This document shows positions 19,795-64,000 of a DNA stretch of 64,000 bases, one piece after another. The first letter of the stretch is position 1; each line of letters begins with the position of its first letter. The notes under the pieces were generated by a model, which was given only the letters and a program-made list of their open reading frames with translations, was not told the DNA's origin and did not search any database. The translations under genes and the position numbers were made by a program. This stretch comes from an uncultured Pseudomonadales bacterium (GTDB lineage: Bacteria; Patescibacteriota; Microgenomatia; UBA1400; UBA1396), in assembly GCA_964519905.1 (NCBI GenBank), contig CAZFLN010000003.1, forward strand, positions 1,413 through 65,412, read 5' to 3'.

Positions 19795-19796
19795 AT

Positions 19797-22472: not shown

Positions 22473-22485
22473 CAAGTGAGGCAGC

Positions 22486-23652: not shown

Positions 23653-23659
23653 AAAGCAA

Positions 23660-24805: not shown

Positions 24806-24816
24806 GAAAGGACAAC

Positions 24817-26546: not shown

Positions 26547-26585
26547 TTTCGTTTCTCTCTTTGAGGAACAGATCAGAAGGAACCT

Positions 26586-47440: not shown

Positions 47441-48667
47441 ATGGCCACGAAAAAACTGCCACGAGCCATCATTCTTATTCCAACGTATAACGAGGCTGGG
47501 AACATCCCAAAACTCCTTCCTCGCATTGCCAAGGTTCGAGAAGGAATAGATTCGTGGGATGTTCAAGTTCTGGTTATTGATGACTCTTCCCCAGATGGTA
47601 CGGGTCAAGTCGTTTTAGATTTACGTAAGAAGTACGATTTTCTCCATTTGTTAGTGAACAAGAAAAAGAGTGGTCTCGGTGGTGCCTACTTAAAAGGTAT
47701 GGCCGAAGCTTTTGGGAACATGGGCGCGGATGTTGTATTTGAAATGGATGCTGATCTGTCTCATGATCCCAAAAAACTTCCAGAGTTTTTGGCTGCTCTC
47801 GATGCTGGGGCTGATATGGTGCTGGGATCTCGTTACATTCCAGGTGGATCTATTCCAAGTAATTGGGGTCCGCACCGAAAATTTTTAAGTGTGGCCGGCA
47901 ATCTCTTTATTTCTTTGGTCTTGATGTCTCGAGCAGTTCGAGACTGGACTGGGGGCTACCGGGCAATTCGACGGAATGTCTATGAAGCCGTGCATGAGGA
48001 AATGGAGCAGTCAGCCAAGTTCACTGGGTATACTTTCCAAATTGGATTTTTGCATAAAGCGTTGCGCGCTGGATACAAAATTGTAGAAGTGCCTTTCCAC
48101 TTTGTTGATCGTACCGTTGGTGAGTCAAAGTTGGGAACAGAGTACATTATTAACACACTGAAGTACATTCTCCGAGTTCGAGTCGAAGAGATTTTTTCTT
48201 CTCGGATTTTTAAGTTTGCCATGGTTGGTGGAATTGGTTTCCTGGTCAACTTAATTGCCTTTAATATTTTCAAACTTTTCTCACTGTGGACAGGCTTGGC
48301 ACAAGTTCTTGGTGTGGCAGTGGAAAATCCAATTTTTTCTGATCAATCACTGGCTGTGATTCTGGGGGCTGAAGTTGCCATCGTTTCGAATTATTTACTG
48401 AATAATCTCTGGACTTTCCAAGACAGACAGATACACGGATTTTTCCGCCACTTACGCAAATTCTTTCAGTTTAACGTTGGCTCCGTTGGATCGATAGTGA
48501 TTCAATACGTTGTTATGCAGGCCAGCGTGGCTTTGCTGGGGGTGTTCCCTCTGTTCCATATCGGAAGCTTTGCTTTGCAGAGTGACAATTTATACTTAGT
48601 GGCCGGGGTGCTCATTGGCATGATTTGGAATTTCTCGGTATATAGTTTGATAATTTGGAGAAAATAA
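47441..48667 (+). CDS. polyprenol-phosphate glycosyltransferase (DPM1-like GT2) fused to a C-terminal GtrA-like membrane domain
   Basis: AIILIPTYNEAGNIPKLL, VLVIDDSSPDGT and DADLSHDP. The C-terminal ~120 aa has four TM segments (FKFAMVGGIGFLVNLIAFNI...) typical of GtrA. Confidence 0.7.
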   Translation: MATKKLPRAIILIPTYNEAGNIPKLLPRIAKVREGIDSWDVQVLVIDDSSPDGTGQVVLDLRKKYDFLHLLVNKKKSGLGGAYLKGMAEAFGNMGADVVFEMDADLSHDPKKLPEFLAALDAGADMVLGSRYIPGGSIPSNWGPHRKFLSVAGNLFISLVLMSRAVRDWTGGYRAIRRNVYEAVHEEMEQSAKFTGYTFQIGFLHKALRAGYKIVEVPFHFVDRTVGESKLGTEYIINTLKYILRVRVEEIFSSRIFKFAMVGGIGFLVNLIAFNIFKLFSLWTGLAQVLGVAVENPIFSDQSLAVILGAEVAIVSNYLLNNLWTFQDRQIHGFFRHLRKFFQFNVGSVGSIVIQYVVMQASVALLGVFPLFHIGSFALQSDNLYLVAGVLIGMIWNFSVYSLIIWRK

Positions 48668-50283
48668 TGGCTCGAACTTTACAGAATTTTTGGGAACGGT
48701 ATACAGCTTGGTGGGAGAAACAATCCAATCTTGAACAGTGGGCGTTTGTTTCCCTCTGTGTTTCGTTTTGTATTGGTGCTGCTTTTCGATTCACAAATCT
48801 AGCCGCGAGTCTCCAATTTCAAGCCGATCAAGGAAGAGACGCAATTGTTGCCTACAATATTTTGCATGGTGACATTGCTTTGTTGGGACCATCCACAAGT
48901 GTGGGGAGTATGTATCTTGGTCCACTCTATTACTACTTCATGGCACCGTTTATTAGTTTATTTGGTATGAGTCCGATTGGACCAGCCATAGCGGTGGCTA
49001 CACTAAGCCTTTTGACTCTACCTATTTTGTTCTTGATTGTACGACGGTGGTTGGGCGTGACTGTGGCCACTTTTTCTGTTCTTGCTTATGCCACAGCTCC
49101 TTGGGTAGTAGAGTACTCACGATTTTCTTGGAATCCTAATCCTGCTCCAATTGTCAGTCTATTGCTGTGGTGGTCTGCCTGGAAGGCATTGCAGGGAAAG
49201 TACCGATGGTGGATGGCTGTTGGATTGTGGGCAGCAGTATTAATGCAGCTGCACTATGTTGCATTGCTCGCTATTGCTCCAGTTGGAGTGTGGTGGTTGT
49301 GGAATGGCGGGGAACTACTCTGGAAGCGTTCTTGGCATCAGCTTCGATCTTTTCTACTTTGGAGTTTTGGTGCTGGTTTGGTAGTTCTTGCTTCATTTAC
49401 TCCATTAGTGGCGTTTGATATCCGTTTTGACGGATTGATTCGCAGCGGATTCGAAGAATTTTTGTCAGGGTCTCAATCTGGTGAAGCATCGTCAATTGGA
49501 AGTTTACAGCGAGTTTGGCGCGAGCAAGAAGGAAGAACACTCTATAGTTTTGGTGAGTTTTGGGGTGGAAAAGATTCTATTCCTGCGTATCGAACAGTTC
49601 TGAAGAGTGTTCTCTTGGGAGTTGGAGTGGTATGGTTGTTTTTTGCATGGAGACTGAGGAGTCTTGGGAAATTAAAAATTTGGATGTACCTTACTTCCAT
49701 AATAGTTACTTCTATTGTCGGATTAGCTTGGTATCGTGGAGTTTTGCATGCGCATTACATAACATATTTGTATCCCATTGTGGGCATTGTTTTGGGTTCA
49801 GGAGTTACAGAATTGGCTTGTAGAGGACGCCTGGGACGAGTATTTGCTGGTATATTATTATCCCTAGCAATTGGAGCAAGTCTTATCCCAGGGACATACT
49901 ATTTCTTGGACTCTGCTGGCTGGCAATACAAAGATATGAGATTTATCTCACAACGGGTATTAGCTGAAGTTCCAAAAGATGCTACTTACTCTTTGACATT
50001 GCTTTCAGAAATTCGTGACTATCGTGGAATGAACTATAGGTATTTCCTTATTACATCTGATCATCCACCGATTGATTTAGCAGTTTCCCATGAAGCAGAC
50101 TACTTGGTTATTATCGCAGAATCTCCTGATGAAGCAGCTGATGTTCTTGGCTCACCGGTGTATGAAATTGTAACTTTCCCGAAAGGACAGTATCGTGTTG
50201 TTCAAGAGGATCGTGGACCAAAGATTTACATTATTGAAAATAGGGACAAAACACTCGGCATTCCAGAGAACGATACTCCGTGA
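48667..50283 (+). CDS. GT-C fold membrane glycosyltransferase (family 39/83, ArnT/PMT-like)
   Basis: First-loop acidic motif FQADQGRDA. More than 10 TM segments. Hydrophilic C-terminal domain. Start coupled to the upstream stop. Confidence 0.55.
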   Translation: MARTLQNFWERYTAWWEKQSNLEQWAFVSLCVSFCIGAAFRFTNLAASLQFQADQGRDAIVAYNILHGDIALLGPSTSVGSMYLGPLYYYFMAPFISLFGMSPIGPAIAVATLSLLTLPILFLIVRRWLGVTVATFSVLAYATAPWVVEYSRFSWNPNPAPIVSLLLWWSAWKALQGKYRWWMAVGLWAAVLMQLHYVALLAIAPVGVWWLWNGGELLWKRSWHQLRSFLLWSFGAGLVVLASFTPLVAFDIRFDGLIRSGFEEFLSGSQSGEASSIGSLQRVWREQEGRTLYSFGEFWGGKDSIPAYRTVLKSVLLGVGVVWLFFAWRLRSLGKLKIWMYLTSIIVTSIVGLAWYRGVLHAHYITYLYPIVGIVLGSGVTELACRGRLGRVFAGILLSLAIGASLIPGTYYFLDSAGWQYKDMRFISQRVLAEVPKDATYSLTLLSEIRDYRGMNYRYFLITSDHPPIDLAVSHEADYLVIIAESPDEAADVLGSPVYEIVTFPKGQYRVVQEDRGPKIYIIENRDKTLGIPENDTP

Positions 50284-50300
50284 TACAGTAAGGAAGCACT

Positions 50301-51062
50301 ATGGCACATCCATATCTCTCAGTCATTATTCCTGCCTATAACGAAGCCAAGAATTTCCAGCGTGGAGCACTCGACGAAGTATTGGCATATCTTCAGAAAC
50401 AGTCATTTGCTTGGGAAGTTATTCTGAGTGATGATGGTTCAACCGACAATACCGTCGAACTCCTTGAAAAGTTTGCCAAGCGTCATGCTGGAGTTCGTGT
50501 TTTGCAGAATCCACATCAGGGAAAAGGCCCAACTGTGACTGCTGGTATGCTGGCTGCGACTGGAAAGTATCGTTTGTTTACTGATTTTGATCAGTCTACG
50601 CCGCTGTCTGAGTTTGAGAAATTCGAACCTTTCTTTGACGACGGATATGATGTGGTAATCGGTTCACGAGAGATTCAAGGAGCTCGTCGAAAAGACGAAC
50701 CAATTCATCGTCACATAATGGGCAAGGGATTTAATATGCTGGTGCAGTTTGTGGCTGTTCCAGGGATTCATGATACGCAGTGTGGATTTAAGCTTTTTTC
50801 TGCGGAAGCCACCGAAAAACTTTTTCCTCGTTTGCGCGTCTATGGAGCCAAAAAGCGACAGGATGCTTTCACTGGTGCGTTTGATGTGGAGTTGCTTTTG
50901 CTCGCCAGGCATTTTAAGTATCGCATCGCTGAGGTTCCGGTAGAGTGGAATCATCATGAGACTGATCGAGTGAGTCCACTCAAAGACTCTATTCGAATGT
51001 TGGTTGATGTTTTGCGAATTCGCTGGACTGCTCTACGAGGACTGTACTCACATGCTGAGTAA
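50301..51062 (+). CDS. polyprenol-phosphate glycosyltransferase (DPM/GtrB-like GT2)
   Basis: LSVIIPAYNEAKNF, VILSDDGSTDNT, DFDQSTP and a TQCGFKLF block. Confidence 0.75.
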   Translation: MAHPYLSVIIPAYNEAKNFQRGALDEVLAYLQKQSFAWEVILSDDGSTDNTVELLEKFAKRHAGVRVLQNPHQGKGPTVTAGMLAATGKYRLFTDFDQSTPLSEFEKFEPFFDDGYDVVIGSREIQGARRKDEPIHRHIMGKGFNMLVQFVAVPGIHDTQCGFKLFSAEATEKLFPRLRVYGAKKRQDAFTGAFDVELLLLARHFKYRIAEVPVEWNHHETDRVSPLKDSIRMLVDVLRIRWTALRGLYSHAE

Positions 51063-52332
51063 ATGGATATCTCAACCGCAATTCCCCCGCTTTTTTTGGC
51101 TTTTTTCTGCGTTCTGGAGTGTGATCCTCTTGTCACTGTCATGGTGGTCATACGCTTTGGTTGATGGGAATCTTACCTTGCTCCCCTGGGAACCATTTAT
51201 GCAGTGGCAAACAAGTCGTTGGCAAGCTCAAGCGAATTTTTCGCTGATTGCTTGGCAGTATGTTGGGATTGTTCTGGTCTGGTGGGGAATGTTTTTATCT
51301 GTATTTGCCTTGTGGCACAAAGAATCAGTGCAAAAAGTTTCTTGGGCTTTTGGAGTGTTGTCTTTGACAGGAATTCTTTTCCTGTTTCTTGGACATAATG
51401 CTCACACTCGAGATATTTACAATTACCTTTTTAATGCCAAGATGTGGTTGAGTTACGGCGCGGATCCTCATATACGTACGGCGCTTGAATTCTCATACGA
51501 TCCCTGGACTCGTTTTATGCATAATACCCATATGCCAGCCCCATATGGATATGGCTGGACTCTCTGGTCATTTATTCCGTATATTCTTTCTGGAGCAGGG
51601 ATGTCATTTTTACTTTCATATTTTGCTATGCGAGGTTGGATGGTTTTGGGACTGCTCTTGCTTTTGGTTGCCACCTGGTGGGCGGTTCAATCTCAGGTTT
51701 TCTCAAAATCAGAACGCTGGTGGCGTTGGGCATTGGTTGGCTTGCATCCACTTCTACTCATGGAAGCTGTTTTGAACGGTCACAACGACGTGTGGATGAT
51801 GGCTCCAGTGATTGTAGCCTACGGTATTGCCCTGAGACCTCGACAGCGATGGCATTGGATTGTGATTCTCTTTTTGTTGGCATTCTCTGCGTTTTTGAAG
51901 TTTGCAACCGTCGCCGTTTGGCCAATATTTGTCTTGTTTCTCTTGCAGGATGTTGTTACTCAGATGAAGATTGGAATTCCAAGAATACTGTCTGTTTGGA
52001 AAAATTTTGGCATTCGGTACTCTGGAGATTTCGCCGCAGTGTGTATGGTGCTGCCACTGCTCACTCCGCGTTCAAAGTTTTTCCTCCCATGGTATGCCGT
52101 TTGGTTTCTGGCCTGGTTGCCATTTGGTCGGCTAGAAGGAGTTCGGTGGATACTCTTGGGGTTAAGTTTTACGAGTATGCTTCGTTACGTCCCATGGATG
52201 CTGGCGAACTATTCTTATGACTCTGCGACGATTCAGTCAGAGATGCAACTTATTACTTGGTCAGGATGTTTGCTAGGGTTGAGCTTGTGGATAGTGTGGC
52301 GAGTTATTCAATGGCGTAGATCACAAACATAA
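51052..52332 (+). CDS. polytopic membrane protein, putative GT-C/DUF2029-like glycosyltransferase
   Basis: About 12 predicted TM segments. Conserved-looking loop LNGHNDVWMMAPV. Lies between the GT2 and UbiA genes. The ORF-track start at 51004 overlaps the upstream gene. Confidence 0.35.
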   Translation: MLSKWISQPQFPRFFWLFSAFWSVILLSLSWWSYALVDGNLTLLPWEPFMQWQTSRWQAQANFSLIAWQYVGIVLVWWGMFLSVFALWHKESVQKVSWAFGVLSLTGILFLFLGHNAHTRDIYNYLFNAKMWLSYGADPHIRTALEFSYDPWTRFMHNTHMPAPYGYGWTLWSFIPYILSGAGMSFLLSYFAMRGWMVLGLLLLLVATWWAVQSQVFSKSERWWRWALVGLHPLLLMEAVLNGHNDVWMMAPVIVAYGIALRPRQRWHWIVILFLLAFSAFLKFATVAVWPIFVLFLLQDVVTQMKIGIPRILSVWKNFGIRYSGDFAAVCMVLPLLTPRSKFFLPWYAVWFLAWLPFGRLEGVRWILLGLSFTSMLRYVPWMLANYSYDSATIQSEMQLITWSGCLLGLSLWIVWRVIQWRRSQT

Positions 52333-53254
52333 CAAGAATTCCCCAAGCAATTGCCGCAACCAAAAGTGGTTTATCGCGCAGCAAGACGCGTTCTGGGGAC
52401 TCTCCCTCATTTGATTCATAGACGAGTTGTAGATACCGCATGACTCCGTAAATCGTGAGTGGGACCGTAAGCATGAGAAGTTTTTGCGCCGAAAAAGCGC
52501 GAGGCAGAAACGCAAGGACTGGTGGGACCACGCCAGTAGAAATATCTGTTTCTTGTTGGAAGGCAAAGAGCGCATAGGTCAACCATGCCGCATTGGCGAA
52601 CATACCTGTGTAAATATCGAGCAAACGCACGGAATAGGTGTTGAGCGCTTTGCGTGTGGCAAAACTTTTTCCGGACTCATCAACTCCTGTGAGCAGTGTT
52701 CGCTCACTTTGGCGCTTGGCCACCGCAATAAAGAGTGAGACAGAAATAACTGTCAGCAAGAACCAGACGCTCATGTGCAGATTTACGACGACTGCTCCCG
52801 CGTATACTCGTACCATAAATCCCGCGGCAATGGAGAGCACATCAAGAATGGAAATATGCTTAAACACAAAGCTGTAGCTGACTTGCAAAGCGACATACGC
52901 CAACATCAGTAAAAACACAAACGGTGACAGCAACCAGCCGCCAAAAAGGGCTATGCTGACCAGCACTGAAGCGGCGATTCCGGCTGTAACTGGTGAGAGC
53001 TTTCCACTTGCCAACGGGCGCTTTTTCTTGAAGGGATGTTTGCTATCGGATTCGCGATCAACAATATCATTGAGAACGTAGATCGACGAGGAAAGAAAAC
53101 AAAACAAAATAAACGTTTCCGTGACTCTCCAAAAATAACTTGGGAAATCATAAAAGAAAAAACCAGAGAACACCAGAGCAGCGAAGACAGCCAAGTTTTT
53201 TAACCATTGGCGCGGTCGGAAAGTCTTGAGGAGATAATAGAGCGTTGTAACCAT
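52304..53254 (-). CDS. UbiA prenyltransferase family protein (decaprenyl-phosphate phosphoribosyltransferase-like)
   Basis: NDIVDRESD (NDxxDxxxD) motif followed by KKKRPLASGKLS. Eight to nine TM segments. Confidence 0.55.
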   Translation of the reverse strand: MVTTLYYLLKTFRPRQWLKNLAVFAALVFSGFFFYDFPSYFWRVTETFILFCFLSSSIYVLNDIVDRESDSKHPFKKKRPLASGKLSPVTAGIAASVLVSIALFGGWLLSPFVFLLMLAYVALQVSYSFVFKHISILDVLSIAAGFMVRVYAGAVVVNLHMSVWFLLTVISVSLFIAVAKRQSERTLLTGVDESGKSFATRKALNTYSVRLLDIYTGMFANAAWLTYALFAFQQETDISTGVVPPVLAFLPRAFSAQKLLMLTVPLTIYGVMRYLQLVYESNEGESPERVLLRDKPLLVAAIAWGILVMFVIYAIE

Positions 53255-54294
53255 ACCAGCAGAGTGATAAAGATCAGTCCTGCAGCCATCATAGCATATC
53301 GCTTGCCCTCACTGCGGAGGCTTAGAGCCAGGATTCCAAAGATGAGCGTGGTAAGCCAGTAAAATCGAGCTATCTGCGGAATACTCCAGCCTGAATCGAG
53401 CATGCGGTGGTGGAGGTGTCCTCGGTCTCCCCAGAACGGTGATTTGCCCGCCGCCAGGCGGCGGGTGACGGCAAAGACGGCGTCGGCGGTCGGGATCGCC
53501 AGGAGAAGTAAAACCGTGGCAAGTTTTGCCCCCGACAAAATAGCTAACACGGCTAGAAAGTATCCGGCCAGCGATCCCGCGGCGTATCCAGGCATCATTT
53601 TCTGTGGATATTTATTCCACATCAGCAAACCAAAGTAGGCTCCACTGACGCTCAGTGCCAAAATAGTCACTGGCCATTGGCTGGTATCTCCGGCAAATCG
53701 AAGACTCAGCAAGGCAATGACCAAGGCAGCAATTGTTACGAAGCCGGGAAGTTGCCCATCCACGCCTTTGGACCAGTTTACAGCGTTCATGTTCCAGACA
53801 ATCCACAAGAGCGCGAGTCCGTCGGCAATGGGAGAAAAAGAGGCCTGGTAACCGAGAATCGAAAAAACTTGTGTGCCAATGGTTAAGTCTATGGTTCCAG
53901 GACCAAATGGATTGGTGACATAGTCGATGCCCACTCCGCCAAGGATCACACAGCCAGCAGCCAAAAAATTGAGGAGCCAGCGAATAAGTGGGTGAATGTC
54001 GTAGCGGTCATCGAGTGTTCCGCTGATCAGGAGAATAATAGCCCCAAGAATGACGCCAAGAATGGCGGAATCCCAAGGCCAGAGCAAAAATCCTCCCAAA
54101 ATGAGTCCAGCGGCAATCACGAGTCCTCCACCACGGGGAACCGGTGTGGTATGCACAGTTTTGGGATGGGAATTTTTATTGGGATCGTCAATCCAGCCAA
54201 TTTGTGAATAGAGTCGAATCACCAATGGCGCGGCTGCGGTGGACAGAAAAGCGGATCCTGCCCAAAGCAGCCCAAAGAGTGCCGCGGGGTTCAT
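53200..54294 (-). CDS. polyprenyl-phosphate N-acetylhexosamine-1-phosphate transferase (WecA/MraY family)
   Basis: IDDPNKNSHPKTVHTTPVPRGGGLVI block and multiple TM segments. Start taken at MNPAALFGLLW. Confidence 0.6.
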   Translation of the reverse strand: MNPAALFGLLWAGSAFLSTAAAPLVIRLYSQIGWIDDPNKNSHPKTVHTTPVPRGGGLVIAAGLILGGFLLWPWDSAILGVILGAIILLISGTLDDRYDIHPLIRWLLNFLAAGCVILGGVGIDYVTNPFGPGTIDLTIGTQVFSILGYQASFSPIADGLALLWIVWNMNAVNWSKGVDGQLPGFVTIAALVIALLSLRFAGDTSQWPVTILALSVSGAYFGLLMWNKYPQKMMPGYAAGSLAGYFLAVLAILSGAKLATVLLLLAIPTADAVFAVTRRLAAGKSPFWGDRGHLHHRMLDSGWSIPQIARFYWLTTLIFGILALSLRSEGKRYAMMAAGLIFITLLVWLQRSIISSRLSDRANG

Positions 54295-54644
54295 AGGATA
54301 ACTTTCATTATTCTCAGGAGCGCTAAGAGAAGCATTCCTTGTAAGAAACATACCGCCCACCAATTTAAGTGAGCGAGGTAGTTTTCGTGCTCAAGGTCGG
54401 TGACTCGTCCGTACAAAAATCCGATTACGAGAATCCATGTACTCAGCGCCGCGAAACTTACAACTGCCCAACTTGGAGCCAGTTGGTCCGTGAATTGGGT
54501 CAGTGAGTACCAGAGGGGAAGCGTTGTTGGGCCAATCCAGTACAGAAGTCCGCTGAGCGCACAGACACTGAACCAGAGAGCAGTGGAAATTCCCATCAGT
54601 CGGTTATGCTTAAAGTCGTAGCGAGGGAAACGAATCTTGGCCAT
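54291..54644 (-). CDS. small hypothetical membrane protein
   Basis: 117 aa with three hydrophobic segments. Coupled between two glycosyltransferase genes. Coding status is uncertain. Confidence 0.3.
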   Translation of the reverse strand: MAKIRFPRYDFKHNRLMGISTALWFSVCALSGLLYWIGPTTLPLWYSLTQFTDQLAPSWAVVSFAALSTWILVIGFLYGRVTDLEHENYLAHLNWWAVCFLQGMLLLALLRIMKVIL

Positions 54645-54656
54645 ACGTGTATTGTA

Positions 54657-56300
54657 TCAATTCTGGAAAAGGTGCAGACTTGGGTTGTTTGGTAGAGCAC
54701 CGCTTTCTGCAGAACTGCGATGGTAGATGATCATTTCACTCGTTTCGAGCACGGGTACATAATTTTGATTCATGTAGGTTTTTAGTTCTGGCCAGAGGGA
54801 CTCTTTTTTCATTTCAACAATAATTTTTGGTTCTGCCGCGATGACATCTTGGAGTACTTCATCATAGTTCTTGAGATCGTGTATATGGAAGGCTACAGTA
54901 AAACGACTGGCCGGATGACGCTGTGCTTGCGCGTAGAGAGTTGGGTTTGTACCCCAAATAAAAATAGGATCACCAGATGGAACAACACTCTGGATGTATG
55001 GCACGAGAGTTTCATTTTGCGGAACGATTCCGTTGAATCGAGCGCGATACTCAGCTGGTTGGGTGTGTCCAGTGAGAAGTTTCCAGGCGTTTTCGTAGTA
55101 CTGTCGTGTGGGATAGTGTCCGAATCCAATAAGCTCAGAGGCTCCCCAGAAAAGAAAGAATGTTACGAGGATTCCCCCTCGAGTTAGCCAGCCGGTGCTT
55201 GTCTGAATGAACCAACCCACAAGAAGTGCCATTGGTGGCACGACTTGGATCAGATAGTGCGGATAGGGCCGATTGGATAATAGTGCGCCAAACAGCGCCG
55301 CAACCAGCCAGAACATGGTCCAGGCTGGGAGTGCTTGTTTGGGAAACTTCCAAGTCAGAAGCAGTGCCAGGAGGAAACTTGAGATGAGTACCATTGTTTT
55401 GCCTGGCAAACTGAGAAGAAACAGCAAAGCCGGGTTTTGAACTGGCAGTGACCATGTTCCAGTGTAATGGAAGTTGTAGAGCAGTCCAAATTCAAGATAC
55501 TCTGTCCCCGCGCCTCGCACCCAGAAATAGAGGATGGAGAGGAGCAGAGGAGTAACGAAACCAGCAGTGAGTGCCAAGCCATGGGCCAAGAGTATTTGCA
55601 GATTTTTGAAAGGTGATTTTTTCCTAGATTTAAGCGAGAGAAGGAACGAAAAAATCACCACACTGCCTATGGCTCCAAGATCCAGAATAGCAGGCACTTT
55701 TGTGAGCAATGCCAAGCCGACGACTGCTCCAGCAGCACCAAATCTCCAGAGTTGGTACCCAGGCGCAACAGGTGCTTTCTTATTTTCCAGTGTTTTCCAC
55801 CAGCCAGCACGAGCGAGCCACCACATACCAGCCAACAAAAATCCAAGCACAAAGAGTTCCCCATTTGGAATATTTCCTTCCCAGCGAGGCAGACAGGTGG
55901 CGAGTACAAATATTCCAGTTGCGAGCCACGTTCCCCAACGATTCAACCAGCGTTTCGCAAGAAGATAGAAAAAGGTAGTACTTGCCAAGCTCCAGACTAT
56001 ATTGAGCACTCGGAACCAAAACTGATCCGGAACCATTGCCAGGTAATAAATAATCGGAGTCTTATGATCAACGATGTCCCTGTACAGAATGGCTCCATTG
56101 CGGAGTGCAGTTCCTATGGTGAGATAGATGGCTTCGTCACCGTACCAGTAGGGCTCTGCTAAGTTGGGGATTCGCAAAAGCAGATTCAGTGCCAGGAATA
56201 TTAACAAGGCTTCCTGATTATTCGCCCAGGTATTGAATTGAAGAAATCGAGTTTTGATACTTTGCCACGAAAGAGTGTGTGAGACACGAGACATACACAA
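54657..56300 (-). CDS. GT-C fold membrane glycosyltransferase (family 39/83, ArnT/PMT-like)
   Basis: Loop motif AEPYWYGDEAIYLTIGTAL (DE motif). More than 10 TM segments. C-terminal soluble domain. Confidence 0.6.
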   Translation of the reverse strand: MCMSRVSHTLSWQSIKTRFLQFNTWANNQEALLIFLALNLLLRIPNLAEPYWYGDEAIYLTIGTALRNGAILYRDIVDHKTPIIYYLAMVPDQFWFRVLNIVWSLASTTFFYLLAKRWLNRWGTWLATGIFVLATCLPRWEGNIPNGELFVLGFLLAGMWWLARAGWWKTLENKKAPVAPGYQLWRFGAAGAVVGLALLTKVPAILDLGAIGSVVIFSFLLSLKSRKKSPFKNLQILLAHGLALTAGFVTPLLLSILYFWVRGAGTEYLEFGLLYNFHYTGTWSLPVQNPALLFLLSLPGKTMVLISSFLLALLLTWKFPKQALPAWTMFWLVAALFGALLSNRPYPHYLIQVVPPMALLVGWFIQTSTGWLTRGGILVTFFLFWGASELIGFGHYPTRQYYENAWKLLTGHTQPAEYRARFNGIVPQNETLVPYIQSVVPSGDPIFIWGTNPTLYAQAQRHPASRFTVAFHIHDLKNYDEVLQDVIAAEPKIIVEMKKESLWPELKTYMNQNYVPVLETSEMIIYHRSSAESGALPNNPSLHLFQN

Positions 56301-56801: not shown

Positions 56802-57431
56802 TTATGCTCTTGCCACTGTGAGCGCATATATGTTTCTCACTCCAGCAGCGTTGAGAGCTCGAGCGCACGCACTGAGTGTGGCTCCTGTTGTGTGGACATC
56901 GTCTACCAGGCAAACGGTTTTGTACTGACTGCGTCGTGTACATCGAAACGCGGTGGTAATGTGGTGACGGTGATTTTTATCTTGTCCCGCCTGCGACTGC
57001 TGCCAGTGGGTTCGGTGTAGGAGTGTTGTGTCCGTGGGAATGCCTGATCGACAAGAAAGACGTTCTGCGAGCAGAACTGTCTGATTGAATCCTCGAGCGC
57101 GCTGGCGCTTGGGGTGGAGAGGGACTGGGATGAGTGCTTCTATTTTGTGTTGGTGGAGCCAAGGTTGGCTTTGCTGCGCCAGCGCGTCTCCCAGCGGCTG
57201 AGCAAGTACTCGTGCTCGTTTGTACTTATAGGTATGGAGGATTTTTGCCATGTGCTCGTCGTACTCACAGAGACTCCAGATTTTTCGCAGACTTGGATGG
57301 GCGAGTTTGGGCAGGACTTCTGGCCGATCACACCAAGACATTCTGCGCCAGCAACGGGCGCAAATCCATTTCCTGAATCGCCCACACCCTTGGCAAAACG
57401 GTGGAAACAATATATCGAGGATATGCATCAA
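56802..57431 (-). CDS. comF: ComF family protein (phosphoribosyltransferase domain)
   Basis: N-terminal Cys-rich zinc finger (CQGCGRF...CARCW). C-terminal PRTase motif VCLVDDVHTTGATL. Confidence 0.75.
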   Translation of the reverse strand: MMHILDILFPPFCQGCGRFRKWICARCWRRMSWCDRPEVLPKLAHPSLRKIWSLCEYDEHMAKILHTYKYKRARVLAQPLGDALAQQSQPWLHQHKIEALIPVPLHPKRQRARGFNQTVLLAERLSCRSGIPTDTTLLHRTHWQQSQAGQDKNHRHHITTAFRCTRRSQYKTVCLVDDVHTTGATLSACARALNAAGVRNIYALTVARA

Positions 57432-57496: not shown

Positions 57497-58168
57497 ATGG
57501 AAGAAATGCTCGCCCCGCTTATTAATTGGATTGAGTCGCTCGCCACGAGTGTCAGTCTCGAAGTTTTTGTGGTAGTGGGAGCGTTCTTAGAAGAGCTGAT
57601 TGCTCCGATTCCTTCTCCGTTTGTGATGACTACTGCTGCCGTGCTGGCACAAGTCCAAGGGTATACTTGGATGCATCTTGGATTCTTGATCCTGCTCGCC
57701 ACTGCTGCCAAAACGCTCTCTACGTACTGTGTGTACGTGATTGCTGATAAAGCAGAAGATGTGGTGATCGGGCGTTTTGGAAAGTATTTTGGCGTTTCCC
57801 ACGGTCACATTGAAAGTCTTGGCAAGATGTTGACCAAGTCTTGGTGGGATGATGTGCTGCTGCTGATCGCTCGCTCGGTGCCGATTATCCCAACCTTCCC
57901 AGTTTCTGTTGGTGCGGGTGTGATCAAGTACAACGTTCGCTCGTACGTGCTAATGACATTTATTGGAACATTTATTCGAAACATTATTTATCTTTGGGTC
58001 GCGTACTTTGGCTGGAATGGTTTCCAAGCCATTCGCCGAGATCTGTGGGAACACCCACTGTGGCTGGCGATTGGTGTGATTGTTTTGCTCTTGATCTTCA
58101 TCTGGATTATGCGGGCCAAAGATACGCTCTGGGAGCGAATTCTGCGCAGAAATCCGTTTCAAAAGTAG
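57497..58168 (+). CDS. DedA/VTT-domain family membrane protein
   Basis: 223 aa with multiple TM segments and DedA-like blocks (GAFLEELIAPIPSPFVM, LIARSVPIIPTFPVSVGAGV). Confidence 0.6.
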   Translation: MEEMLAPLINWIESLATSVSLEVFVVVGAFLEELIAPIPSPFVMTTAAVLAQVQGYTWMHLGFLILLATAAKTLSTYCVYVIADKAEDVVIGRFGKYFGVSHGHIESLGKMLTKSWWDDVLLLIARSVPIIPTFPVSVGAGVIKYNVRSYVLMTFIGTFIRNIIYLWVAYFGWNGFQAIRRDLWEHPLWLAIGVIVLLLIFIWIMRAKDTLWERILRRNPFQK

Positions 58169-58269: not shown

Positions 58270-58356
58270 GGAAGGGTCGCATAGTGGTCGAGTGCGGTAG
58301 TCTTGAAAACTACTGAGGGTTTACGCTCTCCGTGGGTTCGAATCCCACCCCTTCCG
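58270..58356 (+). tRNA. tRNA-Ser (anticodon UGA)
   Basis: Acceptor GGAAGGG/CCCTTCC, 3-bp D-stem, anticodon stem GTAGT/ACTAC with loop CTTGAAA, long variable arm, T-arm GTGGG-TTCGAAT-CCCAC. No encoded CCA. Confidence 0.9.
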
Positions 58357-58486
58357 CAAGTCTTTCTCGCTTTCCCATTCGCTGCTATACATGGAATAAT
58401 TTGATGTATGGTGTACTATATGTTGTAAACTCACATCTCAGTTTTCCTTGTTTTTTTATGTAGTATGTAGAAGAAAAAATTTGTTT

Positions 58487-59317
58487 ATGAAAAATGCACA
58501 TTTTTTAAATGGTCAAATTGTCTCTGAGGATGATCTACAGATATCACCACGAGATTTGGGCTATTCCCGTGGATATGCTGTTTTTGAATTTATGCTTGCT
58601 CATAAAGGTCGTCCGTTTATGCTTGATAAGCATATGGATAGATTGTTTGCTTCTTGTGAGTCAATAGCACTTACTCTACCTTGGTCAAAAGAGCAAATTT
58701 CTGAATGGGTACTAAAAACTCTTGATGCAAATAAGTCTAAAGAAGAAAAAGTTATACGTATCATAATTTCCGGGGGACCATCTGAGACACTTGTTCCTGC
58801 AAGTATGCCCACCATAGTGATGGTGGTTGATTCTCGTCTTGGAGGCCTCCCTGAAGAATATGAAAAGGGCGTTCATGTTTTGCTTTCTGAATTTCAAAGG
58901 TATGAGCCTCAAGCTAAAACAAATAATTATATTGAAGCAGTTCGGCAGTTTAGATCCATACCTAAGGATATTCATGAAGTTATATATCATTCCGAAAATA
59001 TGGTGCGTGAAGGAACAAGGTGTAATGTGTTTGCATTGGTAAATGGTACTTTGGTCACTCCTAGAACTGGTATTTTGGAAGGAATCACAAGAAGTGTAAT
59101 ACTTAATGAATTACAACTGTCCCTACCAGTTGAGACGAGAGATTTTTCTGTAAAAGAATTACTTGAATCTCCAGAAGTATTCATCACTGCAACAAGTAAG
59201 GAAGTGATGCCAGTAACTAAGCTGAACAACCAACTTGTGGGAGATGGTTTAGTAGGTCCCGTCACCAAAGAGGTAATGAGTAAGTTCCGCGCTTTTTTTG
59301 AGTCAGATCTTTGGTAG
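58487..59317 (+). CDS. class IV (fold type IV) aminotransferase (D-amino-acid/branched-chain aminotransferase family)
   Basis: RGYAVFEFM, RIIISGGPS and EGTRCNVFALVNGTLVTPRTGILEGITRSV blocks. AT-rich codon usage. The true start is taken as MKNAHF. Confidence 0.65.
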   Translation: MKNAHFLNGQIVSEDDLQISPRDLGYSRGYAVFEFMLAHKGRPFMLDKHMDRLFASCESIALTLPWSKEQISEWVLKTLDANKSKEEKVIRIIISGGPSETLVPASMPTIVMVVDSRLGGLPEEYEKGVHVLLSEFQRYEPQAKTNNYIEAVRQFRSIPKDIHEVIYHSENMVREGTRCNVFALVNGTLVTPRTGILEGITRSVILNELQLSLPVETRDFSVKELLESPEVFITATSKEVMPVTKLNNQLVGDGLVGPVTKEVMSKFRAFFESDLW

Positions 59318-59325
59318 TTTTTTTG

Positions 59326-60138
59326 TTAGGTCCACAAAGATAGTGCCCCATCTTTCAATGTCATGAATGTGTTAAGTGCAAGTCGTGGTTTGTTTGACTT
59401 TATTGCTTCTACTTGGTGAAAATTTCGTGATCGAAACACTACTAAATCTCCCGCTGAGGGCATTACCGTGGCGTGTGGAGTACTATTGAGAAAGTCCTCG
59501 GTGAAGCCATACGTTCCTTTTTGTCCAATATCATTATTGTGCCCCTCGTCCTCTTGTTTCCAAGGTCGATTGTAGACAGTCAACCCTCCACCTTGAGCGA
59601 CCATCTGGAGATATAATACGAGACCAAATTGCTCCTGTGAATCAGATACGCTCCATCCTGGCAGTTGATTTGGAGCATAGTCAAAGTGTAGGGTGCTTTT
59701 TGCTCCCATAGCTCTAATAAGGCCTGCGAAGTATTGAGCATTTTGCATATCTGGTTCAGTCGCTAGAGAAGTGATGTAACTACGTGAAAAAAGTTCAATA
59801 ATTCTATTGATTGGGTTTCGGACGCCTTCAAATATTTCATCTCGAACTCTTGAAGCTTGTGGAGCTGAATCAAAGTACTTTTTCTTACCATCATCTTTAT
59901 AGTGATATTCTGTTGTGCTTATACCAATTCTACCCTGCTGATTTTCTTTGTTTGGGTACCACTGTATTGCTTTTTTTTCCAAATTTTTGATCACTATTTC
60001 GAGTTCTTGTGATAATAAGAATTGACTGATTTGAATAGCTGCAAATTCGTTTGCTGAAAGTGCTGGAAGGAGTGAGGATACTTCAACTGAGTCATCTGCG
60101 CCTAATTGAGCCACGCTCCATTGATTCTCTTTGCTCAT
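59326..60138 (-). CDS. 2-oxoglutarate/Fe(II)-dependent oxygenase superfamily protein
   Basis: HxD (LHFDY), distal His (NFHQVEAI) and Arg (RLAL) spaced as in PhyH/P4H-like dioxygenases. Confidence 0.5.
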   Translation of the reverse strand: MSKENQWSVAQLGADDSVEVSSLLPALSANEFAAIQISQFLLSQELEIVIKNLEKKAIQWYPNKENQQGRIGISTTEYHYKDDGKKKYFDSAPQASRVRDEIFEGVRNPINRIIELFSRSYITSLATEPDMQNAQYFAGLIRAMGAKSTLHFDYAPNQLPGWSVSDSQEQFGLVLYLQMVAQGGGLTVYNRPWKQEDEGHNNDIGQKGTYGFTEDFLNSTPHATVMPSAGDLVVFRSRNFHQVEAIKSNKPRLALNTFMTLKDGALSLWT

Positions 60139-60261
60139 AGTATCTCCTTTTCCTATCTATAATATGTTGTTTATAAATTTGGATCTTATCATGGAAGTTA
60201 CTTGGAAAGTAGCGCATACTTGGAATCGTGTATAATTTAGCATCTGGGAAAAGGTACTCAT

Positions 60262-61713
60262 ATGAAAATTGTAAATTTGCTGCTCATTGGACTCGGCCCT
60301 CACGCGAGACGTATTTATGTCCCCGCTCTTTTCAAATTAGCTAAGGATTTTCCTGTACGACTCATTGTCGCTGTAGACTTGAAAAGCCAAAAAAATTCTA
60401 TCGAGAATTACCTTCAGAATAATGGATATGATTTGGAAATGTTGTATCTTAATCCCTTTGATGTCACTGAAGGAATTCCTGATCGCTCAGAGCAAATGCT
60501 AAATTTTTTGGTTGATAGGTTTGATATACATGGTGTTGTCATATCGACAGAGCCCACTGTTCATAAGTCCTATGCCGAATGGGCCCTTCGAAAAAGGCTA
60601 CACATTCTTATGGACAAACCAATTTCTGTGAGGAAGGGTATTAGCGTTGATCAATCTCAAGCAAAGGGTTTGATTGATGACTATAATGAGCTTTTCAAGC
60701 TATACAAATCTATTCAGAAAGATAAATCAACAATTTTTTCTATAAACGTTCAGAGAAGATATGAGCGAGGCTTCGATAAAGTTCGAGATCTGGTTTCAGA
60801 AACAACTCAAAAGTTTAATGTTCCCGTGACATCTATGCAAATTATGCATGCTGACGGTTCATGGAGATTCCCAAAAGAAATACTCAGCCAACCATCTCAT
60901 GGTCTCCAAGATGGATTTGGGAAAGTGTCACATAGTGGATATCACTTGTTTGATATGGCTTGGCAAATCTATCAGTCTAGTCGTGTTCAAAATAAGCAAC
61001 CTGATCAACTAGAAATTTTTTCTTCACCTTTAAATCCTACAGGGCTCGACGTTAACTTGAATGAGAAAGACTATATCAAATATTTTGGATCTAACTATGA
61101 ACGAACCGGACTTTCTTCGAAGCAATACTTAGCCAAAGTCTCTGACTATGGTGAGATCGACTCATTTAACATGATCAGACTCCTTAAGGAGGGTGAGAAT
61201 ATTTGTAACATCTCTATAAATTTGTTGCATAGTAGTTTTTCAAGACGTTCATGGGCAAAACCCAATGAAGACCTATATAAGGGGAATGGAAGAGTAAAGC
61301 ATCAGCAATTTACAATTCAACAAGGGCCTTTTCAGTGTATCCAAGTTCATAACTATCAATCTAAAGATAAACATGATGTAGATAACTCTAATGAGTTTGA
61401 GGTGGGTGGAAACAATCATTTTGATATATATGTATTCCGTAATGTTGGTATGTTTGGTGAAGGAAATGCCTTCCAGAAAATATCTGCAACGGAATTAGAG
61501 GAACGGACAGATGATACCGGACTGACAAATGAAAATGCTAAACACCGTGTAATAATAGAATTTATTAATTTTATTCTTGGGCGAATACATTTGAATGATG
61601 TGAAATCAAATATTGACTCCCATGATGTTCCTACGAAGTTAATGAGTGGGGTGTCTCAGTCGAGTGCAAATATTCGTAGTAATAAAAATCCTTTAGTTCG
61701 TATCACGATATGA
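60262..61713 (+). CDS. Gfo/Idh/MocA family oxidoreductase with extended C-terminal domain
   Basis: N-terminal Rossmann KIVNLLLIGLGPHARRIYVPAL and HILMDKP (EKP-like) motif. 483 aa. An extended -10 TGTATAAT lies upstream. Confidence 0.6.
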   Translation: MKIVNLLLIGLGPHARRIYVPALFKLAKDFPVRLIVAVDLKSQKNSIENYLQNNGYDLEMLYLNPFDVTEGIPDRSEQMLNFLVDRFDIHGVVISTEPTVHKSYAEWALRKRLHILMDKPISVRKGISVDQSQAKGLIDDYNELFKLYKSIQKDKSTIFSINVQRRYERGFDKVRDLVSETTQKFNVPVTSMQIMHADGSWRFPKEILSQPSHGLQDGFGKVSHSGYHLFDMAWQIYQSSRVQNKQPDQLEIFSSPLNPTGLDVNLNEKDYIKYFGSNYERTGLSSKQYLAKVSDYGEIDSFNMIRLLKEGENICNISINLLHSSFSRRSWAKPNEDLYKGNGRVKHQQFTIQQGPFQCIQVHNYQSKDKHDVDNSNEFEVGGNNHFDIYVFRNVGMFGEGNAFQKISATELEERTDDTGLTNENAKHRVIIEFINFILGRIHLNDVKSNIDSHDVPTKLMSGVSQSSANIRSNKNPLVRITI

Positions 61714-62336
61714 CAGGATCAATTTATCTCATCGGGGGAGGAGAAATTAGAGGTGGGGAAACCCATCTAATCCATGAGAATATTATGTCGCTTGCTCCCA
61801 AAGGATCTACTCTCGTGTTTTTTGGTTTTGCTGCACAAGATAGTGCTGATTATGCTAATGCTATCAAATCTGTTTTTGGCAAGAAATTTAAAGTTTTAGT
61901 TCCTACAAAAGAAAAAGGTCATGAATATGCTATCAACGCTATTCAATCCTCATCAGTAATATATCTTGGCGGTGGCGATACAGATCTATTGATACGATTA
62001 TTTTCTGAGTGGAAGCTTGTTGAACATTTATCAGCTGCAGTCGCAAAAGGTGTTCATGTTGCGGGTATGAGTGCTGGGGCTCAAGCGTTGTCTCATTGGT
62101 ATATCCATGAAGAAGGCGAAAACATGGAAGTAAGAAAGGGTTGGGGTTTTGCTTCTGTCTGCACGCTAGTACATGCTCATCGAGACTCATTCGAAAAGGC
62201 CAAATCTGTATGGGAGAACTTCCCGAGAGAGGATGAGTGTTCTTTTGTGGCGATTGGCGAGAGAGCCGCCTGGTGTATTAACTCATCGGGAAAGCAAAGA
62301 ATTGGCAGTGGCAATATTTATGGAGAAGATTCTTAG
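61710..62336 (+). CDS. peptidase S51 family (dipeptidase E/cyanophycinase-like)
   Basis: IYLIGGGE, VIYLGGGDTDLL and catalytic-Ser block VAGMSAGAQAL. ATGA overlap with the upstream oxidoreductase. Confidence 0.6.
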   Translation: MTGSIYLIGGGEIRGGETHLIHENIMSLAPKGSTLVFFGFAAQDSADYANAIKSVFGKKFKVLVPTKEKGHEYAINAIQSSSVIYLGGGDTDLLIRLFSEWKLVEHLSAAVAKGVHVAGMSAGAQALSHWYIHEEGENMEVRKGWGFASVCTLVHAHRDSFEKAKSVWENFPREDECSFVAIGERAAWCINSSGKQRIGSGNIYGEDS

Positions 62337-62416
62337 TATTGTTTACCGAGTTAAGGTAACGAACGTGATACAATGCAATTGTTCTATTAAATCGCTAGGC
62401 ACCCAAGGGAGACGCA

Positions 62417-63079
62417 GTGAGTGAAAGAATAAATAACGTCTTTCGAACTGTTCAAGCTGAGACGCAGTGTCCTTTTGCTAAATCAGCCATTATCACATTT
62501 GCACGTCCAATTTCAGCTGAGTTTTCTATACCAGAAGCCGCTCAACAACTTTTTGAAGATCTTGTTGCTTATGTTAAAGAAGGTATTGTAACAGTGCCTG
62601 ATGGTCTGGCAGTTGCTCTGCCCAATACGGTGATTGGAGAAGACTTTAAATCCTTAACGTTAGGATTTAAGGCTCTGTACCACGCACTAAAAATACATGA
62701 TGGATTGAGCGAAGAGTCTATAACTACCGAGAACATTGAAGATCCAGGCTGGCAACTGACGATAGCCGAACAACGTCTATTTACACTTGTTTTTGGATCG
62801 TTGTATCCTGCTAATAACCCACGTCATATTTCTATAGCGGACACTACTTTTGTATTTTTTCAACCAGTTCAAAGTTTTAGCGATCGAATACCAGCTGATA
62901 AGCACAGCGAAGAATTCAAGAAACTAAAACAGAGTATTCGGACTCGCTTTAGTGAAGCAGGAAGAGCGTATGATGCAGCCATCCATGATGACCCACGAGA
63001 AGCTGCGAAATATCTGTCCCCTCTACATTTAGGCATGCCAGCGGTGGAGTGGTGGAAAAGTGATCGGCCTGAAGAATAG
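62417..63079 (+). CDS. YqcI/YcgG family protein (tentative)
   Basis: N-terminal QCPFAKSAIITF resembles the FPCxFA signature of YqcI/YcgG. Size is ~220 aa. Confidence 0.35.
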   Translation: MSERINNVFRTVQAETQCPFAKSAIITFARPISAEFSIPEAAQQLFEDLVAYVKEGIVTVPDGLAVALPNTVIGEDFKSLTLGFKALYHALKIHDGLSEESITTENIEDPGWQLTIAEQRLFTLVFGSLYPANNPRHISIADTTFVFFQPVQSFSDRIPADKHSEEFKKLKQSIRTRFSEAGRAYDAAIHDDPREAAKYLSPLHLGMPAVEWWKSDRPEE

Positions 63080-63121
63080 TTTTATTCAACCTAAAATTTA
63101 TCAGTAATTAAAGGAGTTGTT

Positions 63122-64000
63122 ATGACGGAGCATTTGAAATCGAGATTTCAGCAATACCATCAGGATAAAGGTTTTTCTATTTACAAACCCTTTCCATTAG
63201 TAACTACTGATGATCCTACGGTTTTGTTTACCAATGCTACTATTACTCCATTTAAAAACATGTTTACCGGAGAAACGGCTGCTGGAAATTATGCTCTTGT
63301 GCAAAAGTGTCTTCGTTTAGGCGGCACGGGTGGGAATGCGGATAGAGCTCGCGAGGACATACACTACACTTCACTGTTTGAGATGCTTGGTAGTGGGTAT
63401 TTTGGTGTAAGTCCAGTGGTTGCCCTAGAATATTTCGTTGAAATGTTAGAGGCATTAGGGCTCCAAATGGAAAAAATGATCTTTTCTTCAATAGAAGGCA
63501 ATCCACTAGCAGCGGCACTCATGTCTTCGACCTTAGATTTAAATCAGATTCGTATTGTTAAAGACCCGAAAGAATTGCAACATGAGTGGAGTTTTGGCGA
63601 AGGAGATTTGCATGGCGTTGGCGTGATTGCATGGTTTGACTCAGAAGGACTAGGAAAAAACACTGCTTTGAGTGACTGTTTGCAGATAGGTAGGATTGTA
63701 CACATTGATGGTATTTCTGAAGGCGGATCTGTAAGACCTTTTGAGTACAACGCATTTGATGTGGGATTGGGTATGGGTAGAGTTGAGCGTGCTATAACAG
63801 GTCAAGGGGAAGCTTCCTTACAGCCTTGGAGGGATCTATCTAAACAATTTAAAAATATTTTTGAGCATATCTCTGATGGAGATGCTCACTACATGTCAAA
63901 TCTTTGCCTGGTTATTGATGAGTTAACTTTTGAAGGACTAGAACCAGGGAAGAAGAAACACTCGTACGTACTTAGAAAAATTATTCGTTCCTTGATAGAG
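63122..64000 (+). CDS. alanyl-tRNA synthetase catalytic-domain paralog (divergent; C-terminus beyond window)
   Basis: Strong RBS AAAGGAG. Open frame to the window end. Collinear AlaRS blocks: DPTVLFTNATITPFKNMFTG, QKCLRLGG, HYTSLFEMLGSGYFG, DVGLGMGRVERAI and SYVLRKIIRSL. The motif-2 Arg context (RHHTFFEMLGN) and the GPCGPC block are not conserved. Confidence 0.6.
   Translation, partial: MTEHLKSRFQQYHQDKGFSIYKPFPLVTTDDPTVLFTNATITPFKNMFTGETAAGNYALVQKCLRLGGTGGNADRAREDIHYTSLFEMLGSGYFGVSPVVALEYFVEMLEALGLQMEKMIFSSIEGNPLAAALMSSTLDLNQIRIVKDPKELQHEWSFGEGDLHGVGVIAWFDSEGLGKNTALSDCLQIGRIVHIDGISEGGSVRPFEYNAFDVGLGMGRVERAITGQGEASLQPWRDLSKQFKNIFEHISDGDAHYMSNLCLVIDELTFEGLEPGKKKHSYVLRKIIRSLIE

Follow-up and report, generated by a model that had tools for sequence, protein, structure and literature searches.

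What does a protein with the UbiA fold do in the middle of a glycan gene cluster of a bacterium of the candidate phyla radiation (CPR; Patescibacteria), and what is its product used for? The question is raised by the window analysed here, a stretch of 64,000 nucleotides (64 kb) of contig CAZFLN010000003.1 (assembly GCA_964519905.1), in which positions 52304-53254 of the minus strand encode a protein of 316 amino acids (aa), with an ATG start and with the stop codon counted in the coordinates. This protein, called DPPRS below, is assigned to the polyprenyl-phosphate 5-phosphoribosyltransferases (DPPRS/PPPRS; UbiA fold, Rv3806c family). Judged from its sequence, it most likely moves 5-phosphoribose from phosphoribosyl pyrophosphate (PRPP) onto a polyprenyl monophosphate, with inversion at C1. 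Taking the gene, its operon and the precedents together, we consider it likely that DPPRS is a lipid-phosphoribose synthase of the Rv3806c type that feeds an ArnT-like glycosyltransferase of the GT-C fold encoded in the same operon, and that the sugar handed on is probably ribofuranose. The envelope chemistry of this phylum is essentially unknown, and the bacteria that carry these genes are uncultured and host-dependent.

That the open reading frame (ORF) at 52304-53254 represents a genuine gene, as opposed to a chance ORF, is evident from an identical protein in the databases and from homologues whose identity ranges from 82% to about 55%. When 1.84 billion cluster representatives were searched with HMMER, 1,366 representatives of 50%-identity clusters matched at E<=1e-30, and the nearest relatives are filed under Candidatus Woesebacteria, Pacebacteria, Microgenomates and 'Patescibacteria group', which identifies the source of the window as a Patescibacteria (Microgenomates) bacterium. 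An earlier note on this DNA had recognised a UbiA-family enzyme by two motifs and had proposed a DPPR-synthase-like function on the paradigm of Rv3806c. Both motifs are indeed there (NDIVDRESD at residues 62-70 and RPLASG at residues 79-84), the family membership is clear from PF01040 (81.3 bits, cut-off 34.2), and the proposed identity is favoured by an equivalog model, by the only structure that is matched by sequence, by the substrate-binding residues and by a neighbour-joining tree.

The equivalog model is NF008977, the NCBIfam model of decaprenyl-phosphate phosphoribosyltransferase, against which DPPRS obtains 239.8 bits, a marginal pass of the cut-off of 234. The models of the UbiA, CyoE, MqnP, ChlG and GGGP types give 18-47 bits against cut-offs of 180-430, none of which is reached (TIGR01474, 38.1 bits against 275; TIGR01473, 30.2 against 210; ChlG, 23.4 against 313; MqnP, 21-23 against 375-430). 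The sole PDB match by sequence is Rv3806c itself (8j8j/8j8k), with E 1.3e-40 over residues 8-305 of DPPRS. In the reverse direction, a hidden Markov model (HMM) built from the CPR family gives 178.8 bits for Rv3806c, 24.8 for E. coli UbiA, 16.7 for CyoE and 5.3 for MenA. Placement among the UbiA subfamilies, which the earlier note had suggested as a check, puts the CPR clade as sister to Rv3806c in the neighbour-joining tree and not with UbiA, MenA or CyoE. The AlphaFold2 model of DPPRS is all-helical (pLDDT 70), and its top match in Foldseek is again 8j8j (E 6e-12, TM 0.75/0.81, 31% identity, probability 1.0). An archaeal digeranylgeranylglyceryl phosphate (DGGGP) synthase and UbiA homologues follow with TM values of 0.55-0.62 and identities of 15-18%; the UbiA and DGGGP synthase folds are also matched at probability 1.0.

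The residues that contact the substrates are conserved as well. In Rv3806c, N73 and D77 were identified as the Mg2+ ligands by cryo-electron microscopy and mutagenesis (PMC10994848). According to the same study, the ribose is contacted by N73 and Q135, the 5-phosphate is held by K28, Y70 and Y157, the pyrophosphate by R22, K87, R90, K143 and Y138, and the head group of decaprenyl phosphate by K28, Y157 and K191, and K208 adds to the positively charged cleft; this phosphoribose site is not common to UbiA prenyltransferases (PMC10994848). The functional residues were transferred to DPPRS via a HMMER alignment, and 14 of the 15 are identical (R13, K19, Y59, N62, D63, D66, D70, K76, R79, Q124, Y127, K132, K180 and K202). 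The fifteenth, Y157, is replaced by F146, and Phe in this position is found in some mycobacteria as well (PMC10994848). Conservation was counted over 108 full-length CPR homologues, in which all mapped residues are invariant except Q124 (Gln in 91, His in 11, Asn in 6) and K202. The motif N62-D63-I-V-D66-R-E-S-D70, which corresponds to the N73/D77 motif in cytoplasmic loop 1 of Rv3806c, shows no variation among the 108. Two aspects of this pattern are highlighted. First, the PRPP-specific ligands (R13, K76, R79, K132, Y127, Q124, K19 and Y59) are all identical to those of Rv3806c, and the lipid head-group ligands have their equivalents in K19, F146 and K180. Second, DPPRS and Rv3806c share features that set them apart from their UbiA-fold relatives: the second Asp-rich motif, which binds a second Mg2+ in UbiA enzymes that use prenyl diphosphates (DRDDD in E. 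coli UbiA, DINSD in MenA), is absent from both and K-R-x-x-E is present instead, and both contain a C-terminal RY..GE.PE..LRD segment that is absent from UbiA, MenA and CyoE. No fused extra domain was found in any synthase homologue (ORF lengths 308-379 aa).

Transferred to DPPRS, these contacts outline a possible reaction at the cytoplasmic face of the membrane. The polyprenyl monophosphate would sit in the intramembrane cavity by way of K19, F146 and K180, and PRPP-Mg2+ would dock in the cytoplasmic cleft, where N62 and D66 could hold Mg2+, R13, K76, R79, Y127 and K132 the pyrophosphate, and K19 and Y59 the 5-phosphate, with N62 and Q124 contacting the ribose. The lipid phosphate would then attack C1 with inversion, giving polyprenyl-P-beta-D-5-phosphoribofuranose and pyrophosphate. 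Undecaprenyl phosphate is the probable carrier. The terms 'decaprenyl' and 'arabinose' belong to the mycobacterial annotation and are better not applied to the CPR enzyme.

What the product is used for is suggested by the genes that accompany the synthase. DPPRS is the last gene of an operon that runs along one strand, in which a GT-C gene is followed by a gap of about 400 nt that contains the gene of a small membrane protein, then by a gene of the PNPT superfamily (WecA-like polyprenyl-phosphate sugar-1-phosphate transferases) and finally by DPPRS. The neighbouring proteins of the window were searched by tblastn against 80 syntenic loci from reference genomes, and the ORFs of these loci were also clustered de novo; DPPRS was found in 80/80, PNPT in 76-79 (79 by tblastn), the small membrane protein in 67 (by clustering) and GT-C in 67-69 (69 by tblastn), and most of the loci that lack GT-C end at a contig end. 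The operon is retained beside a homologue of 48% identity, where the GT-C protein gives a clean PMT_2 match, and it is gone at a homologue of 41% identity. The stop codon of the small ORF and the start codon of PNPT overlap as ATGA, and the 3' end of PNPT overlaps the start of DPPRS by 55 nt (53200-53254), an overlap that is kept in many related loci; translational coupling is thereby indicated. At the other end, the 3' ends of DPPRS and of a convergent gene for a 442-aa GT-C protein overlap by 29 nt (52304-52332), so that there is no room for a terminator. The scan for promoters and terminators was uninformative, since promoter-like sites are no commoner than in shuffled sequence. The earlier note had described the gene as flanked by a GT-C-like membrane protein and a WecA-like transferase. 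Both do adjoin it, but the GT-C that is conserved with the synthase is the one at 54657-56294, two genes upstream.

The operon has further neighbours in other genomes. In 52 of the 80 loci the gene directly upstream of GT-C encodes an unannotated GT2-like membrane protein of about 500 aa with an 'IIIPTYKEP' motif (for example L040:5333-6838), and this gene in turn usually follows TatD and a methionyl-tRNA-synthetase-like gene. The family has no Pfam or PDB match, and it is present neither in the window nor in the closest lineage (L001-L008). A PMT-type GT-C lies downstream in 38 loci and is not found in this window. A literature search within the library that could be searched returned nothing relevant that links Patescibacteria or CPR bacteria to this enzyme, to DprE1 or to pentofuranoses, and the architecture of the operon is a modest new variant that was previously undescribed. 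As a separate observation, dozens of metagenome-assembled genome records named 'uncultured Pseudomonadales bacterium' and one named 'Vitreimonas sp.' carry this CPR operon; their genes are 55-72% identical to those of Woesebacteria and Pacebacteria, and the organism names look wrong.

Of the three partners, the PNPT protein (53200-54294, minus strand, 364 aa) is encoded immediately upstream of DPPRS. It matches PF00953 with 70.5 bits and reaches 74 bits with the WecA equivalog model and 50 bits with that of MraY, both far under the cut-offs. E. coli WecA is matched with E 1e-17 over 299 aa, the SPF..DR.H.HH segment included, and E. coli MraY with E 8e-9 over 185 aa of the C-terminal half only. 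Conservation of at least 97% in 77 sequences was obtained for the catalytic motifs DD, N..N...G.DG and GDR.H.HH, and NCBI names the homologues 'undecaprenyl/decaprenyl-phosphate GlcNAc-1-phosphate transferase'. The true start of the gene was placed at the ATG at 54294, and not at the TTG at 54363, because of the ATGA overlap with the small ORF; an identical 364-aa database protein agrees with it.

The small membrane protein (54291-54644, minus strand, 117 aa, three predicted helices) belongs to a family of about 120 aa that in its 67 loci always lies between the GT-C and PNPT genes. A P-x-x-P-L-F-Y-S-L motif is conserved in the family, three segments are hydrophobic, and neither a Pfam match nor a meaningful PDB match was obtained. 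A relationship with the ArnE/ArnF-type flippases was considered and found no support (hhalign probability <1%, no PDB match), which leaves only the positional analogy. Its position makes the protein a candidate accessory subunit or flippase.

The third partner (54657-56294, minus strand, 545 aa) gave no match even at E<=10 with a Pfam set that lacks PF26314 and PF27757, and its homologues give a borderline PMT match or a clean PMT_2 match. Its AlphaFold2 model is of high quality (pLDDT 91.8, pTM 0.90), and the best Foldseek match is ArnT (5f15; E 2e-6, probability 1.0, TM 0.51), followed by ALG6, ALG3, PIGU and EmbB, from which it follows that the protein has the GT-C fold. The profile comparison of the family with E. 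coli ArnT was insignificant (hhalign probability 2%), and in the predicted model the relationship to ArnT is visible at the level of the fold only. Invariant residues are Y53-G54-D55-E56 in the first extracytoplasmic loop, D78-H79-K80 and R344-x-Y346. ArnT uses a pentose linked to undecaprenyl phosphate.

The pairing of the synthase with this GT-C protein is proposed because the operon is conserved and because a three-component pentofuranose system offers a precedent (PMC11127046). After synthesis, the lipid-phosphoribose would be dephosphorylated and flipped by proteins outside the present assignments. By analogy with that precedent, the ArnT-like protein could then attach the pentofuranose to an acceptor beyond the cytoplasmic membrane. 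In the simplest case this acceptor would be a glycan that the co-translated WecA-like transferase has begun on polyprenyl diphosphate; a protein such as a pilin or an S-layer protein would be an alternative.

The identity of the pentose depends on the presence or absence of epimerases. Reference proteins from known clusters (the HAD phosphatase and GtrA of Lactococcus, PAP2 and a small EamA protein of Marivivens, and the DprE1-like and DprE2-like proteins of Chondrinema) were compared by tblastn (E<=1e-3) with the 64-kb window and with 84 CPR loci, each with 10 kb on either side. None of them has a match there, and DPPRS, used as the positive control, matches all 84/84 CPR loci. Motif scans near the operon found no PAP2 and no classical short-chain dehydrogenase/reductase (SDR) signature, and one stray HAD motif was seen at a single locus. 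Nor did any epimerase family recur when the 1,184 neighbouring ORFs were clustered de novo. As no epimerase accompanies the operon, ribofuranose is a likelier candidate for the transferred sugar than arabinofuranose.

The alternative that survives best keeps the same enzyme and lets its product enter an arabinofuranose pathway, with epimerases of the DprE1/DprE2 type encoded elsewhere and with GT-C acting as an arabinofuranosyltransferase. Rv3806c, the best-studied member of the family, does feed arabinofuranose, the synthase homologue on the Chondrinema plasmid adjoins a pair of FAD oxidoreductase and SDR genes, and the epimerase searches covered the window and the related loci, so that distant genomic copies would be compatible with arabinofuranose. 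EmbB is also among the structural matches of the GT-C protein, however only at rank 7 (E 0.064, TMq 0.30), and ArnT is clearly the better match. The lack of homologues of the two Chondrinema epimerases in the window and in the 84 loci, and of any classical SDR signature or recurring epimerase near the operon, speaks against this pathway. Known systems usually cluster the epimerases with the synthase (PMC11127046). We regard this alternative as unlikely.

In a further alternative, lipid-5-phosphoribose is not the donor of the GT-C protein. It would be an end product or a primer, for example a membrane anchor, or it would be transferred together with its 5-phosphate, giving an anionic, teichoic-acid-like glycan. 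The 84 loci contain no linked PAP2 or HAD phosphatase, though the systems of Lactococcus, Marivivens, Citrobacter and M. tuberculosis have such an enzyme, either adjacent or as a fused domain, and the tight coupling to PNPT is unusual, as none of the three reference contexts examined shows it. However, no precedent is known for such a use of the lipid, M. tuberculosis has its dedicated phosphatase as a separate enzyme, and its role could be taken by other phosphatases. The strict co-occurrence of the synthase with GT-C, a user of polyprenyl-monophosphate sugars, is moreover the signature of a donor-transferase pair, and on balance this alternative appears quite improbable.

A conventional UbiA prenyltransferase of quinone, heme O, chlorophyll or archaeal-type ether lipid synthesis, with which the Pfam UbiA match, the shared NDxxDxxxD motif and the JGI label '4-hydroxybenzoate polyprenyltransferase' of several homologues would agree, is hardly credible and effectively refuted already by the scores of the conventional models and of the family HMM, by the absence of the second Asp-rich motif and by the gene content of the window, in whose 59 ORFs no men, ubi or heme gene was found. 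The earlier note had argued from gene position against a quinone or heme role. CPR bacteria are generally without respiratory chains and quinones.

Several points weigh against an Rv3806c-type synthase that feeds the ArnT-like protein. The pass of NF008977 is narrow, NF008978 is missed by 0.2 bits (206.8 against 207) and NF008976 is far from being reached (160 against 474). The confidence of the DPPRS model is moderate only, and for every CPR member the enzyme activity is extrapolated from homology. Neither the window nor the 84 loci show a phosphatase or a recognisable flippase in linkage with the operon, and the absence of epimerases applies to the 64-kb window and to 10 kb on either side in the related genomes. 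Finally, it is gene order, and gene order only, that links DPPRS, GT-C and PNPT as makers and users of donor and acceptor.

A bolder reading takes the four genes as a core envelope pathway of the Microgenomates group of the CPR, common to the whole clade and yielding a secondary wall polymer based on pentofuranose. PNPT would make a polyprenyl-diphosphate-linked N-acetylhexosamine primer, and on the outer side of the membrane the GT-C protein would extend or decorate this primer with ribofuranose; 5-phosphoribose is conceivable too, because no phosphatase is linked. We offer this reading tentatively, as possible but rather doubtful. If it is true, the pathway would correspond, in minimal form and independently, to the arabinan system of actinobacteria, or it would provide an anionic substitute for teichoic acid, and the small membrane protein and the GT2-like protein of about 500 aa would be new accessory components, for example a flippase or a phosphatase.

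The assignment of the enzyme adds little that is new, because annotation pipelines already give close homologues this name: NCBI and JGI so label proteins of Woesebacteria and other Patescibacteria. The contribution lies in the gene context. In a large CPR clade, a PRPP-dependent lipid-pentose synthase is tied by translational coupling to a WecA-like initiating transferase and, in the same operon, to an ArnT-like GT-C protein, which leads to a prediction for CPR envelope chemistry, namely a surface glycan or glycoprotein that contains ribofuranose. Two conserved membrane proteins thereby become candidates for the missing steps.

The genes on the other side of DPPRS are less widely conserved. 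The convergent 442-aa GT-C gene (51004-52332, plus strand) encodes an MptA/MptB-like protein and is given as context only. Its sequence shares 39% identity (E 3e-61) with a protein of locus L081 that carries PF26314 (MptA_B_family), and the assignment is based on the precomputed Pfam hits of that homologue, as the Pfam set without PF26314 gave none (E<=10). Additional gene context was taken from the locus of a DPPRS homologue of 69% identity. The 442-aa protein has a homologue in only 7 of the 80 loci, and gmd, two GT2 enzymes, PMT_2 and the 442-aa protein itself are confined to the 7-9 closest relatives (tblastn, 80 loci). The 442-aa protein is part of a lineage-specific hexose glycosylation island at 44.1-52.3 kb and not of the conserved operon. 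Viewed along the DNA, positions 47441-56294 contain three pairs of a lipid-sugar synthase and a GT-C protein within 9 kb. In the first, GT2+GtrA (47441-48667) is followed by PMT_2 (48655-50283); in the second, GT2 (50301-51062) by the MptA_B-like GT-C protein (51004-52332); the third consists of DPPRS (52304-53254) and the ArnT-like protein (54657-56294). This arrangement suggests three parallel modules of extracytoplasmic glycosylation.

Just past the operon are genes for a ComF-like protein with a phosphoribosyltransferase domain (56802-57431) and for a DedA/VTT-domain protein (57497-58168), and the adjacency of these two genes to the operon is not conserved in other genomes. The DedA/VTT family has been implicated in the recycling of undecaprenyl phosphate. 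Directly after tRNA-Ser(tga) (58270-58357), the G+C content falls to 0.37-0.42 over positions 58270-64000, against about 0.46-0.49 elsewhere. The genes of this segment seem to have no relation to those around them; they include a class IV aminotransferase, a WelO5-like 2-oxoglutarate/Fe(II) oxygenase (59326-60138), a GFO/IDH/MocA-like protein (60262-61713), a peptidase of family S51 (61710-62336) and a YqcI/YcgG protein (62417-63079), and they have no counterpart in the 80 related loci. The segment may be an island that was acquired horizontally at the tRNA gene.

By Pfam, the remainder of the window holds housekeeping genes, Ddl, rml genes and another group of glycan genes. This second, separate glycan cluster (11516-28628) comprises RmlD-, RmlC- and RmlB-like genes, a GT2 gene, three GT1 genes and another GT2 gene, together with a Wzy_C/O-antigen-ligase-like protein (16344-18203), a PMT-like GT-C protein (18025-19794), a ManC-type guanylyltransferase, an initiating phosphoglycosyl transferase of the Bac_transf family (25926-26546) and a DUF4012 protein. 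On the minus strand, 45 kb from the operon, lies a gene for a phosphodiester glycosidase (NAGPA, PF09992; 6037-7287). A protein of the same family name (L092:9830-10732) is encoded right after GtrA in the DPPRS cluster of a Lactococcus plasmid, which may be a coincidence.

How does the CPR operon compare with the systems that are known? The synthase itself is closest to Rv3806c, the DPPR synthase of M. tuberculosis, with which it shares the fold, 32-35% identity over the full length, the conserved Mg2+, PRPP and lipid ligands (apart from the replacement of Y157), the lack of the second Asp-rich motif and the C-terminal segment. The CPR protein differs by some 17 additional residues between its last helices and, at the level of the locus, by the lack of an adjacent PAP2 phosphatase (Rv3807c), AftB, GlfT2, Glf and DprE1/DprE2. 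The CPR lipid is presumably C55 and not C50, and the Patescibacteria host is without a mycolate/arabinogalactan wall.

The gene order, on the other hand, recalls the arn system of E. coli and Salmonella (ArnC, ArnT, ArnE/ArnF), where the gene of the ArnT-fold GT-C protein is likewise followed directly by that of a small membrane protein. In the arn system, however, the donor is made from a nucleotide sugar by a GT2 enzyme and not by a PRPP-dependent enzyme of the UbiA fold, and the sequence similarity of the CPR GT-C protein to ArnT is negligible and that of the small protein to ArnE/ArnF is nil.

Homologous synthases (30-34% identity, E 1e-35 to 1e-42) are also encoded in the plasmid clusters of Lactococcus cremoris (pF27D), Marivivens sp. 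JLT3646 and Chondrinema litorale, where they too lie in a glycan cluster beside large membrane proteins or GT39 GT-C proteins. These clusters differ in that they carry HAD and GtrA (Lactococcus), PAP2 and EamA (Marivivens) or a FAD oxidoreductase and an SDR protein (Chondrinema), which have no homologues near the CPR operon, and in that 0/3 have an adjacent PNPT gene. At first sight the Marivivens plasmid repeats the CPR gene order (large membrane protein, small transporter, 'GT family 4', DPPRS), but the 'GT family 4' product belongs to the GT-B enzymes and is without similarity to PNPT, so that the resemblance is superficial. A further homologue of DPPRS (29% identity, E 4e-33) is encoded by MT837543.1, an unannotated 6.6-kb 'Bacteriophage sp.' sequence from human faeces, and fits the phage-borne pentofuranose modification systems that are mentioned in PMC11127046.

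A known counterpart of the operon as a whole is the three-component system of Citrobacter youngae O1/O2, which consists of the PPPRS ORF15, the small transporter ORF14 and the GT-C/GT136 protein ORF12 (Kelly et al. 2024, PMC11127046); pentofuranose systems made up of PPPRS, flippase and GT-C have been established experimentally (PMC11127046). The CPR operon resembles it in combining a PPPRS with a GT-C protein whose nearest structural relative is ArnT, in the gene of a small multi-helix membrane protein beside that of GT-C and in the expectation of ribofuranose where an epimerase is absent. Furthermore, D55-E56..Y59, H79 and R344-x-Y346 of the CPR GT-C protein recall the essential D31, E34, Y35, H106, R349 and Y350 of ORF12, as compared with the text of that paper and not by alignment. 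The two systems differ in several respects. The CPR synthase has neither a fused HAD phosphoribose-phosphatase domain nor a phosphatase nearby, and the small protein has three helices instead of four and no similarity to ArnE, ArnF or EamA. In the CPR, moreover, the WecA-like PNPT is an obligatory member of the operon, and the module is conserved throughout the clade instead of being a serotype-variable addition.

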